Source: Bacilli bacterium
GTDB lineage: Bacteria; Bacillota_I; Bacilli_A; RFN20; CAG-826
Assembly (NCBI GenBank): GCA_045628045.1
Contig: JAZQOV010000003.1
Location: 32,001-96,000, forward strand
Reading direction: 5' to 3'
DNA: 64,000 bases
Numbering within the stretch: position 1 is the stretch's first letter; every line of letters starts with the position of its first letter. This document shows positions 10,374-18,236 of the stretch, piece by piece. The position numbers were made by a program, and so were the translations under genes. The notes beneath the pieces are model-generated. The model searched no databases. It was not told where the DNA came from and saw nothing but the letters and a program-made list of their open reading frames with translations.

Positions 10374-10394
10374 TTAAATACCTCTACTTTCTCA

Positions 10395-10480
10395 CTAAGG
10401 ACTCGCTATTAAGGTGTAATGACAAAGTCATTAACTTGATAAACCTTCTCTATGCGGTTGTAGCTCGTGAGGCGACAACG
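10395..10480 (-). ncRNA. L21 leader RNA
   Basis: Minus strand reads ...CTACAACCGC...AAGGT...ACCTT..TAGCGAGTC directly upstream of rplU, matching the Bacillota L21 leader pattern as recalled. Confidence 0.7.
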
Positions 10481-15819: not shown

Positions 15820-15980
15820 CCTAAACAAAATAAAAAAGTATCAATTAGGAACGAGTTAATCGCGGTACCATCCTAATTCAATACTTTGTATTGCACTTCA
15901 TTAATTTGTCCTTAACGCAGAACTACGTCAACTTTCATTGACTCCAAAGGAGTAGCATTACGTTCCTTTATGGGAGTTCT
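15820..15980 (-). ncRNA. T-box leader of alaS (Ala GCU specifier)
   Basis: AATTAGGA-TGGTACC-GCG...CGTTCCTAATT antiterminator, GCGTTA IIA/B-like motif, short Stem I with GCT at 15954-15956, and TATAAT at 15984-15989. Confidence 0.85.
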
Positions 15981-16072
15981 ATAATTATACACTGAATTCA
16001 AATTCAGTAAACAAATTTTAATAGCAATTTATTTTAAATAAGATAAAATAATAAGCAAGGTAGGAAGCAAAA

Positions 16073-16144
16073 ATGATTACTAATTGCATTTCAAAAAATA
16101 GTAAAGTCAATGCTTTTTACTTTGGTTATTTTTACTATAGGTAA
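16073..16144 (+). CDS. Phe/Tyr-rich leader peptide (23 aa)
   Basis: MITNCISKNSKVNAFYFGYFYYR* preceded by AAGGTAGGAAG, upstream of the ABC operon. Confidence 0.7.
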   Translation: MITNCISKNSKVNAFYFGYFYYR

Positions 16145-16146
16145 TT

Positions 16147-16233
16147 GTTTCCTGCTGTAAAAATAATTGGTGGGAGACTTAAGTTGAACACCAAGCAAAG
16201 ATAGCCCGGTGTTCACTCCCGGGATTTATTTTT
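16147..16233 (+). promoter_or_regulatory. Transcription attenuator with mutually exclusive hairpins
   Basis: Hairpin 16147-16178; antiterminator 16172-16220; terminator CCCGG/CCGGG (16205-16223) followed by ATTTATTTTT. Confidence 0.65.
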
Positions 16234-16251
16234 GTAAAGGAGTTATTAATT

Positions 16252-17244
16252 ATGAAGAAAACAAAATTGATCTCACTACTTGCTTTAGCAACTGCTGCGG
16301 CAGGACTTGCTTCATGCGGTAACAAAGCCAAATGGCAAATTGGTATTCTTTTACCAGTCGAACACAATGCGCTTCAATCTTGTGCAGATGGATTCGTTGA
16401 AGGATTAAAAGAAGCTGGACTCAAAGAAGGTACAGATTTCTCCGTCGAATTTAGAAATGCTGCAGGCAAAGATGCTGATTTACAAAACTTTGCAAAGCAA
16501 CTTGTCGCTTCCAAAGATATGACCTTTGGTTTAGGAACAGGTGCATCTCAAGCATTAAAATCTGCATCAATTGACAAAGGATCACTTAATCCGGTTTTAT
16601 TCTCTGCAGTTACTGACCCAGTTGATGCTGGATTAGTTGAAAGCTTAGAAAATGGCAAAGGTTTTGTTACAGGTTCAAGTGATGCTCAACCAATTGCTGA
16701 ACAAATCGCTTTAATTAAAGAATGCCTTCCTGAAGCTGACAAAATTGGAATTATTTACACACAAAGTGAAACAAATTCCATTGTTCAAGCTGACCAAGCT
16801 GAAGCTGCCGCAAAAGCTGCAGGCTTAGAAGTTGTTAGACAAACAGTTACAGGCCCAGGAGACATTAATACTGTCGCTCTAGCTTTAGCTAGTGTTGATG
16901 GAATGGACGCAATTTATGTTCCAACCGACAACAATATTGCAGCAAATATGAATGCTGTTAAGGAAGCAGCAAACTCTAAACATGTTCTTGTTGTTGCAGG
17001 TGAAGAAGGTATGCTTTCTACCGGTGGTCACATCACTCTTTCTATCGATTATAAAGAATTAGGAAAACGTACAGGCGAAGTCGCTGCTCAAATTTTAAGA
17101 GGCGAAAAGAAAGTCTATGAAGTTCCTGTTATTACAATGACAAAAGAAGACTGCAAATTAGTCTATAGTAGCGTAAATCTTGCCGCTTCTGGAATTGTTC
17201 TTCCACAAAGCGTTTTAGATAAATGTGAGGATATGTCTAAATAA
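16252..17244 (+). CDS. ABC transporter substrate-binding lipoprotein (TrpX-like, aromatic amino acid)
   Basis: Lipobox LASC, VEHNAL, FSAVTDPVDAGLV, TGSSD and YVPTDN. Confidence 0.88.
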   Translation: MKKTKLISLLALATAAAGLASCGNKAKWQIGILLPVEHNALQSCADGFVEGLKEAGLKEGTDFSVEFRNAAGKDADLQNFAKQLVASKDMTFGLGTGASQALKSASIDKGSLNPVLFSAVTDPVDAGLVESLENGKGFVTGSSDAQPIAEQIALIKECLPEADKIGIIYTQSETNSIVQADQAEAAAKAAGLEVVRQTVTGPGDINTVALALASVDGMDAIYVPTDNNIAANMNAVKEAANSKHVLVVAGEEGMLSTGGHITLSIDYKELGKRTGEVAAQILRGEKKVYEVPVITMTKEDCKLVYSSVNLAASGIVLPQSVLDKCEDMSK

Positions 17245-17246
17245 AT

Positions 17247-18236
17247 ATGCTAGATGTTATTATTAATATTTTAACTTCTGGTCTTCCTTGCGTATTACTT
17301 GCGCTTGGCATTTTCTTAACCTTTAGAATACTTGATTTTGCAGATTTAACTGCCGAAGGCAGTTTCTTAATTGGTGCTGCCGTTTCAGGATTACTTATTG
17401 TTAACGGAGTTAATCCTTGGATTGCAACATTTTGTTCATTCTTAGCAGGCGGAGCTTGCGGAGTTATTACAGGTGTTTTAAATCGTTATCTTAAAATACC
17501 AAAACTATTAAGTGGAATTATTACAATGACCGCCTGCGCTTCAATTGCAATGTTAATTATGGGTGCCCAAAAAGGAAACTCCACTCTATTTGCATCACAA
17601 ATTACATTTACAAACATTCAAAAAGGCGGAACAAGTCAAACAATTTACACATTATTTGCGCCTTGGAAATTTGTTGAAGGTTATAACCAATGGATTATTG
17701 CTTCACCTTTAGGTGAAATCATTAAAATCCTTGTAATGTTATTTGTTGTCTTAGTAATTATGTTCGGTATTTATTTCTTCTTTGGAACTGAATACGGAAT
17801 GGCAATTAGAGCAACAGGTTTAAATGAAAACATGTCTAATTCTCAAGGCATCAACGCAAATATAACAACTATTGTTTGTATCGCAATTTCAAATGCTTTG
17901 ATTGCTCTTGGTGGCTCACTTTATGTTCAAGATGCAAAAACTGTATCCACCGTTTCTGCGGCTGGTTACTTAGTAATTGGTCTTGCTTCAATCCTTATTG
18001 GAGAAGCCATATTCGGAAAAAGAACATTTAAGAACTGGATTATTTCCGTTGCTTTAGGCGCAATTGTTTACTTTGTAATTATTACAATTGCTACTAGACT
18101 TGGTCTTCCAACTGAACTTAAGAGCTTGCTTTATGCAGTGCTTATTACAATTGCACTTTGCTTGCCTCTTATAAAATCTGGCTTTAAAAAGCTATTTCAT
18201 ATTAAACAAGACATCGCTTCGGAGGTAAGAAAATGA
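17247..18236 (+). CDS. ABC transporter permease (TrpY-like)
   Basis: FRILDFADLTAEGSF, GMAIRATG.N and LVIGLASILIGE. Confidence 0.9.
   Translation: MLDVIINILTSGLPCVLLALGIFLTFRILDFADLTAEGSFLIGAAVSGLLIVNGVNPWIATFCSFLAGGACGVITGVLNRYLKIPKLLSGIITMTACASIAMLIMGAQKGNSTLFASQITFTNIQKGGTSQTIYTLFAPWKFVEGYNQWIIASPLGEIIKILVMLFVVLVIMFGIYFFFGTEYGMAIRATGLNENMSNSQGINANITTIVCIAISNALIALGGSLYVQDAKTVSTVSAAGYLVIGLASILIGEAIFGKRTFKNWIISVALGAIVYFVIITIATRLGLPTELKSLLYAVLITIALCLPLIKSGFKKLFHIKQDIASEVRK

Follow-up and report, generated by a model that had tools for sequence, protein, structure and literature searches.

A predicted Phe/Tyr transcription attenuator ahead of a putative aromatic amino acid ABC importer in a Bacilli genome

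Described leader-peptide attenuators and the locus

The enterobacterial his, pheA and pheST operons are controlled by leader-peptide attenuators, in which a run of control codons is combined with alternative helices and an intrinsic terminator. In bacilli, His leader peptides have been predicted (PMC2965389), and a Phe uORF has been predicted upstream of aroF in Acholeplasma (PMC8632094). Stav 2019 described uORF-12, a prediction with 1258 representatives (90% in Firmicutes; Bacilli, Clostridia and Erysipelotrichia), as a peptide rich in F and Y that is encoded directly ahead of P1, in most cases upstream of amino-acid transporters; in uORF-13, the P1 loop contains F-Y-F, the terminator is simple and aroF/tyrA usually follow (PMC6429828). 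T-box control has been described for trpX of Streptococcus suis (PMC9382623). The premise of the original prediction for our locus, that ribosome-mediated attenuation is foreign to Bacillota, is outdated in view of the published predictions (PMC2965389, PMC6429828, PMC8632094). The kind of attenuator reported here was already predicted in 2019, and our locus is a further case. A literature search, in which subscription papers were thinly covered, turned up no experiments on a Phe/Tyr leader ahead of a TrpXYZ-family transporter.

By its published description, uORF-12 shares with our leader the F-Y-rich peptide right before the first stem, the amino-acid transporter downstream, the occurrence in Firmicutes and the status of a prediction. 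It differs in the downstream genes that are named for it, a sodium-dependent transporter or shikimate genes, and in that its description gives no ribosome-position logic, unlike the model presented below (PMC6429828). Our leader, which in the model works like a classical attenuator, fits the published description of uORF-12. We also considered uORF-13 and rejected it: the F/Y run of our leader lies in the 5' arm of a helix (A:B), the leader has six segments, and a transporter gene follows.

The window, i.e. the whole stretch of 64,000 nucleotides that we analysed (G000:C3:32001-96000; all positions are those of the window), belongs to a genome of 1.07 Mb with 33% G+C that is 96% complete. The leader is flanked by alaS (- strand, start 15809) and by a three-gene ABC operon on the + strand (Table 1). 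The insertion in the ATPase is charged and separates the signature motif from the Walker B region, and ATPase profiles matched the protein in two stretches, about 2-163 and 264-326. On the - strand, alaS has a short, divergent and weak T-box (15844-15983; 56.6 bits vs. a cut-off of 93), which was missed by the gathering-score scan and is kept in relatives, and rplU has an ordinary Rfam L21 leader ahead of it (10388-10469). No T-box (RF00230) was found on the + strand here, the divergent alaS T-box being the only one, and no Rfam family lay over the window leader (L001), either at gathering score or at E up to 0.05. Away from the leader, T-boxes of this genome stand before ileS, thrS, pheS, valS and alaS (alaS named by profile match, the others from N-terminal sequences).

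The promoter scanner called no + strand promoter upstream of the uORF in the window, and its calls over the relatives were uninformative (upstream in 34/66, inside in 31/66). Two RNA-library contig sets, from related strains, covered only pieces of the locus, with start, end and strand unreadable. A search pattern drawn from the finding itself gave 1 match and 0 in shuffles, a result that carries little weight.

Table 1. Coordinates of the leader features and of the downstream operon in the window.
Feature	Positions	Strand	Basis or remark
Leader RBS, purine-rich, AAGGTAGGAAG	16057..16067	+	Sequence; most relatives also have a purine-rich site ahead of the leader ATG
Leader ORF, 23 codons, MITNCISKNSKVNAFYFGYFYYR*	16073..16144	+	F/Y run conserved in relatives
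Predicted control codons F15 Y16 F17 G18 Y19 F20 Y21 Y22	16115..16138	+	Folding model, three footprint lengths
Segment A, coding-region arm (16125-16135, 16138-16141)	16125..16141	+	Folding
Segment B	16147..16157	+	B:C: 7 pairs, 98.9% paired, no double changes
Segment C	16168..16178	+	Pairs with B, or with D (TGGTG/CACCA plus GAC/GTT) as predicted anti-antiterminator
Segment D	16183..16193	+	Pairs with C, or with E as predicted antiterminator (16186-16192/16208-16214)
Predicted intrinsic terminator: E 16205-16214, F 16219-16223, U-rich tail 16224-16233	16205..16233	+	
RBS of binding-protein gene, AAAGGAG	16236..16242	+	Sequence
Substrate-binding lipoprotein, PF04392 / TrpX-CD0873 family	16252..17244	+	Glu251 and Tyr267 at two published selectivity positions
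ABC permease	17247..18236	+	Weak NCBIfam matches to sugar-type permeases
ABC ATPase, insertion of ~100 residues	18233..19294	+	

Leader ORF, alternative helices and ribosome position

The F/Y-rich uORF with an RBS that had been proposed is present in the sequence, with 7 Phe/Tyr in codons 15-22 and zero Trp. In Phe/Tyr it was the densest of 444 intergenic small ORFs of the genome (ATG ORFs of 8-45 aa, at most 400 nt upstream of a gene) and the sole one with 7 F/Y in 8 codons; among the others none had 6 and six had 5. In 66 hand-picked leaders, the F/Y runs used TAT 190, TAC 102, TTT 121 and TTC 31 times, which amounts to 292 Tyr vs. 152 Phe codons, and no Trp codon was found in the peptides. 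Phe and Tyr were mixed in 57 out of 64 leaders, while 6 were Tyr-only and one was Phe-only.

The predicted switch comprises six segments, A to F. When ribosome-free, segment A is predicted to pair with 16157-16167 and 16151-16154 (A:B); the 4-pair core, which alone was counted on the alignment, was 90.2% paired with no double changes. Segment B is the partner of C in the predicted read-through state and is covered when the ribosome sits at the stop codon. In a covariation alignment of 13 leaders of the window's type, the C:D helix (16168-72/16189-93) was 96.8% paired with double changes at 2 pairs, D:E was 96.7% paired with 3 such pairs, and E:F was 92.3% paired with 2. B:C+D:E was paired in 97.8% of 182 cells, with 3 double-change pairs, all in D:E (3/500 shuffles as high; slid controls 42-59%), and A:B+C:D+E:F in 93.3% of 179 cells, with 4 double-change pairs, 2 in C:D and 2 in E:F (0/500 shuffles); these shuffle statistics overstate the support, since the 13 leaders are related to one another and the helices were taken from the window. 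In one leader (L003), the GGTG/CACC/GGTG core is altered to GGCG/CGCC/GGCG, a joint change in C, D and E.

The predicted terminator consists of the stem CCCGG/CCGGG (16205-16209/16219-16223) and the tail ATTTATTTTT (16224-16233). Its stem is short, with 5 G-C pairs closing a 9-nt loop at roughly -8 to -9 kcal/mol, and the consensus scanner did not call the element. The folding z of the leader was -2.49, with 3/200 shuffles equally good. The hairpin 16147-16157/16168-16178, the helix 16186-16192/16208-16214, the CCCGG/CCGGG stem and the tail of the original prediction are all in the sequence, and its long antiterminator with the GGGAG/CTCCC extension can form, at an energy near that of the terminator state (-28.3 kcal/mol with D:E forced vs. 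-28.1 with the terminator forced). The extension is the least supported pairing (88.1% of 59 cells paired, gaps in 2/13 rows at three pairs) and reuses the 3' arm of the terminator.

The notion of mutually exclusive structures held in that all the proposed helices exist, but it missed the C:D helix and counted three structures instead of six segments. The GTTTCCTGCTG/TGGTGGGAGAC hairpin (B:C) had been given the wrong role: as anti-antiterminator it would make the switch run backwards, and adding C:D restores the classical direction, with B:C as the read-through partner of D:E. In our model, the switch is of the six-segment, his type and the predicted anti-antiterminator is C:D. As in a classical attenuator, mutually exclusive covarying helices end in a predicted intrinsic terminator, although a weak one.

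We folded the window transcript to 16203 with the ribosome masked as A site + 7 nt, and repeated the folding with +4 and +10 nt. For stalls at Y19, F20, Y21 and Y22 (16127-16138), the probability of B:C was 0.88-0.96 and that of C:D at most 0.12. With the ribosome absent or stalled at codons 13-17, A:B and C:D formed (0.92-0.99; C:D 0.92 ribosome-free), and F15-Y16 stalls left the switch unflipped, while a ribosome at R23 or at the stop codon gave a C:D of 0.89-0.99 (0.99 at the stop). The +4 and +10 nt footprints shifted the effective window by one codon, F20 and at least two Tyr always remaining inside. Of 65 leaders, 28 had D more strongly sequestered with the ribosome at the stop than with a stall at the last codon, 3 showed the reverse and 34 were flat, in an automatic test that mis-defined segment D in some leaders.

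Equilibrium folding of later intermediates gave a different picture. For a transcript ending just before F, D:E dominated every ribosome state in the window (0.65-0.66), and folding up to the terminator loop showed no switch for the window and 26 vs. 1 of 64 across leaders; this test was replaced by the earlier decision point. Since D:E wins at equilibrium, termination would require C:D to be trapped kinetically during the synthesis of E and F. For the his leader, too, an early helix is assumed to persist during later transcription. In silico, and subject to these kinetics, ribosome position decides between antiterminator and terminator.

Conservation, covariation and masked-ribosome folding all support the original proposal that a Phe/Tyr attenuator dependent on the ribosome precedes a TrpXYZ-family importer, and we consider it very probable that the predicted element is a ribosome-mediated transcription attenuator ahead of an aromatic amino acid ABC importer. 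The leader would be transcribed from a promoter upstream of 16057 and then translated. With plentiful Tyr/Phe, the ribosome would reach the stop codon and cover B, C:D would pair and the E:F terminator would form, giving a 3' end around 16230; if the leader is not translated, A:B and C:D would lead to the same terminating outcome. A ribosome stalled on Y19, F20, Y21 or Y22 would cover A alone, letting B capture C. With B:C formed, D would be free to pair with E, no terminator would form and the operon would be transcribed. Scarce charged tRNA-Tyr or tRNA-Phe would in this way turn the importer on, and the leader likely senses both amino acids.

Conservation, predicted cargo and competing readings

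Matches to the binding protein were found in 24/41 relatives, 37/201 genomes of the order, 77/301 of the class and 56/301 of a phylum draw that yielded solely genomes of the same class. We read the upstream DNA of all 25 matches in the relatives, of the best 30 of each later search and of 40 further regions, which gave a sample of 128 proteins that leans to closer homologs. The named relatives (binding proteins 49-63% identical) are mostly gut/rumen MAGs titled Bacilli or Erysipelotrichaceae bacterium. The proposed search for F/Y-rich uORFs upstream of orthologs found the leader before 39 out of 45 binding-protein homologs of the order, 37 by an automatic rule and 2 by eye (L032, L036); the 45 are the 48 homologs of the order minus 3 with short upstream DNA (at least 200 nt were required) or in second place in a tandem. 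None of the 45 had a T-box, and the 6 with neither leader nor T-box were all within the genus.

The 80 proteins from other orders comprised 27 with an automatically called leader, 19 with a T-box, 31 with neither and 3 with short upstream DNA; two of these leaders (L099, L101) were judged false and one Phe-only leader (L091) was missed by the automatic rule. By motif, the 19 T-boxes were 8 Phe, 5 Tyr and 6 Trp, with specifier codons taken by regular expression and not from structure. Rfam confirmed T-boxes in 20/20 loci submitted, some of which the motif had missed. Leader and T-box never occurred together in the 128 homologs, and neither was seen for the homologs in Brevibacillus, Peptoclostridium and Collinsella records. 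The leaders of relatives vary in start position, length and spacer sequence and keep the F/Y run with both synonymous codons. In a quick IQ-TREE search of 93 proteins, from which those outside the genus that carry neither label were omitted, 6 changes of the leader label are required, 4 of them forced by well-supported branches, and the window's protein sits in a leader-only group of 55 rows.

Several loci show other arrangements. Four leaders (L020, L016, L017, L049) are 70-90% identical to that of the window, while binding protein and permease are only 33-38% identical, which suggests that the transporter may have been replaced behind a retained leader; L016 retains the alaS neighbour, and the six leaderless homologs fall in the same protein clade as the proteins of these four loci. 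At L057, the terminator region resembles the leaders of relatives and no ATG-started F/Y ORF is present, possibly a decayed attenuator. At L091 (G425:C11:5550-8500), tandem binding-protein paralogs with Ala-Glu and Ser-Glu pockets have a Tyr-only (…AYYYYRNQRI) and a Phe-only (…NFFFRLTRI) leader, and the same tandem pairing occurs with Phe and Tyr T-boxes at L082 and L093. Four loci (L114, L115, L116, L118) have a Trp T-box and then a short Trp-codon ORF just before the binding-protein gene, a possible second control layer. Finally, a pattern scan of metagenomes returned at least 116 stretches, with a short ORF over the pattern in at least 18: at least 8 of these ORFs resemble the window leader, with a downstream gene of the binding-protein family in at least 3, at least one precedes a DAHP-synthase-like gene, and the remaining ones look like chance.

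The best PDB matches of the binding protein were 6HNI (E 1.3e-44), 3LFT and 3LKV, which hold Tyr, Trp and Phe, respectively (PMC6816091). Glu251 and Tyr267 align, in a gap-free part of the alignment, with Glu263 and Tyr279 of CD0873 from Clostridioides difficile (6HNI, the best match), so that by sequence both selectivity residues of this tyrosine-binding protein have their equivalents. CD0873 was stabilised by Tyr alone among 20 amino acids (KD 94 uM; PMC6816091), which counts against Phe as cargo. Position 251 was acidic (Glu/Asp) in 60/64 leader-led, 5/5 Tyr-T-box, 5/8 Phe-T-box and 1/6 Trp-T-box proteins. As a marker against Trp, Tyr267 was rejected: the residue is common to the leader-led proteins and to those behind Tyr, Phe and Trp T-boxes, all 6 Trp-T-box homologs included. 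The match to the TrpX equivalog NF041285 reached 248 bits vs. a cut-off of 390, and the protein has Tyr267, not Gln, at the position of SP1069 Gln284.

A search of the 96% complete genome for chorismate synthase, TrpA, prephenate dehydratase and prephenate dehydrogenase found none of them, with 14/14 controls positive; by its gene content, the cell appears unable to make aromatic amino acids. PF04392 is represented by a single gene. The control codons of the leader match the downstream function, an aromatic binding-protein family with a Glu/Tyr pocket. Among the candidate cargoes of the importer, Tyr is best supported, Phe is likely and Trp unlikely; pocket and leader codons favour Phe/Tyr over Trp as the predicted substrate, as originally proposed.

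It is possible, if doubtful, that the same attenuator is a tyrosine sensor for a tyrosine-only importer, with Phe codons accepted for the UUY/UAY pattern that they have in common with Tyr codons and that pairing requires, or contributing weak control only. Tyr codons do exceed Phe codons (292 to 152 in 66 leaders), Tyr-only leaders outnumber Phe-only ones (6 to 1 of 64), of the four effective codons of the window leader three encode Tyr, and CD0873, with the same pocket residues, is Tyr-specific. Against it, 57/64 leaders mix Phe and Tyr, F20 lies inside the effective window with all three footprints, and Glu-pocket proteins stand behind 5/8 Phe T-boxes. That the importer has a broad aromatic specificity and also supplies tryptophan, under a leader blind to Trp, seems unlikely given the zero Trp codons in 66 leaders, the score under the TrpX cut-off (248 vs. 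390 bits) and the Trp-T-box homologs, which mostly have Ala251 and sit in other tree branches; yet no second PF04392 protein turned up in this genome, in which no Trp synthase alpha chain was detected, and Tyr267, present in 6/6 Trp-T-box homologs, is compatible with Trp.

We regard as highly improbable a riboswitch-like terminator under metabolite or protein control, in which the F/Y run would simply result from a U-rich arm that has to pair. Segment A shares bases with the F/Y codons and is the partner of B, so that pairing does constrain these bases, but RBS, ATG, frame and the stop next to B persist in leaders with dissimilar RNA (to which the window-type model gives E 0.03-1 or no score), the third codon positions vary synonymously, and no aptamer-like core is conserved across the order. 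Least probable of all is an inverted switch, in which a ribosome at the stop codon frees C and D for the long antiterminator, so that plentiful Phe/Tyr induces the operon or read-through mostly prevails. C:D forms first and has double-sided changes, GGGAG/CTCCC is the least conserved pairing, the relatives favour the classical direction 28 to 3, and, B:C and D:E being compatible, a stall could not prevent read-through; these points outweigh the stability of the long antiterminator (-28.3 vs. -28.1 kcal/mol for the terminator state), the dominance of D:E at equilibrium before F is made, and the weak terminator. The preferred reading is still the Phe/Tyr attenuator operating in the classical direction.

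sRNA_2410, the trpB motif and other known systems

The RNA sRNA_2410 of E. faecium has 195 nt and gave two transcripts on Northern blots (PMC5593968). The trpB motif (RF04312), whose two hairpins form a terminator/antiterminator pair and which in most cases precedes an uncharacterised ABC transporter for amino acids, is a riboswitch candidate for which the authors left a classical attenuator possible (PMC11109978). We found that leaders of distant homologs end in …YFR*, and that one of them (L089) matches sRNA_2410 (RF02863) with 76.2 bits (cut-off 61) and the trpB motif with 43 (cut-off 59). The leader before a homologous binding protein in Enterococcus gallinarum (MKLLLSPQLNIAYFSYFR*) reached 89.5 bits with RF02863, and that of a Streptococcus suis operon with two tandem binding proteins (…YFYGYFR*) 36.2 bits; the RF02863 consensus opens with bases reading S-Y-F-R-stop. 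In Ilyobacter polytropus (NC_014633, L279), a Trp-run leader (…FTWWWQ…) precedes tandem binding proteins.

None of the trpB matches examined attained the 59-bit cut-off (best 48.5). Sub-threshold matches lay just behind aromatic uORFs at L065, L089, L109/L274, L275, L282 and L298/L300, followed by genes of the binding-protein family, BrnQ-like carriers or a DAHP-synthase-like gene (we take the BrnQ-like and DAHP-synthase-like genes to be such from their N-terminal sequences); two further matches (L272, L273) had no aromatic uORF ahead. In 150 scored genomes of the phylum, RF04312 gave 4 weak matches, 2 behind aromatic uORFs and 2 plain hairpins. It had no match in the window's genome, and neither RF02863 nor RF04312 matched the window leader at E up to 0.05. 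The trpB-like pattern occurred at 19 loci in viral contigs, with a leader in 2, one near-identical pair; no relative of the binding protein was found in these contigs. A blastn search of plasmids with the L089 leader gave no match. Six sRNA_2410-type leaders, folded at equilibrium and at two fixed lengths, showed mostly C:D in all ribosome states.

Among these leaders, three of the sRNA_2410/trpB-like kind with F/Y runs (L275, L298, L300) stand before BrnQ-like carriers, which suggests that these carriers may import aromatic and not branched-chain amino acids. A W/Y/F leader (L282, …NWYFYYYFRN*) precedes a DAHP-synthase-like gene, as does an F/Y/W-rich leader with a terminator on a metagenome contig (L157:1480-1700) that resembles the description of uORF-13.

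Leaders of the sRNA_2410/trpB type escape the window-type model; what they have in common with the window leader is a shared design, a likeness and not a demonstrated descent. On balance we lean towards one joint reading, in which a single widespread class of aromatic leader-attenuators (Tyr+Phe, Tyr-only, Phe-only, Trp) includes sRNA_2410 and the trpB motif, precedes TrpXYZ-family importers, BrnQ-like carriers and DAHP synthase, and has repeatedly traded places with T-boxes across Bacillota and Fusobacteriota, sRNA_2410 being the terminated leader transcript and trpB the downstream half of the leader. If this is true, sRNA_2410 is no sRNA and trpB no riboswitch, so that one sRNA and one orphan candidate would be reclassified, and the switch of an uncultured organism could be approached through the leaders of cultured Enterococcus and Streptococcus.

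The predicted attenuator would be an order-wide, covarying case in which gut Bacilli with small genomes sense amino acids through the ribosome while retaining T-boxes at other genes, pheS included. Unlike a single T-box, one leader peptide can respond to two amino acids simultaneously, and this may be the reason why a leader serves a Tyr/Phe importer. Leader codons could also annotate the substrate in a transporter family usually labelled 'tryptophan' or 'uncharacterised', and the six-segment mechanism is concrete, with mutations predicted to alter the switch.

Compared with the T-box of trpXYZ, the window leader precedes the same transporter family and would likewise have uncharged tRNA as its signal and termination as its output. 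With the enterobacterial his leader it shares the six-segment parity, the control codons, the alternative helices and the terminator; unlike his, pheA and pheST, it combines two amino acids in one run and would control an importer.
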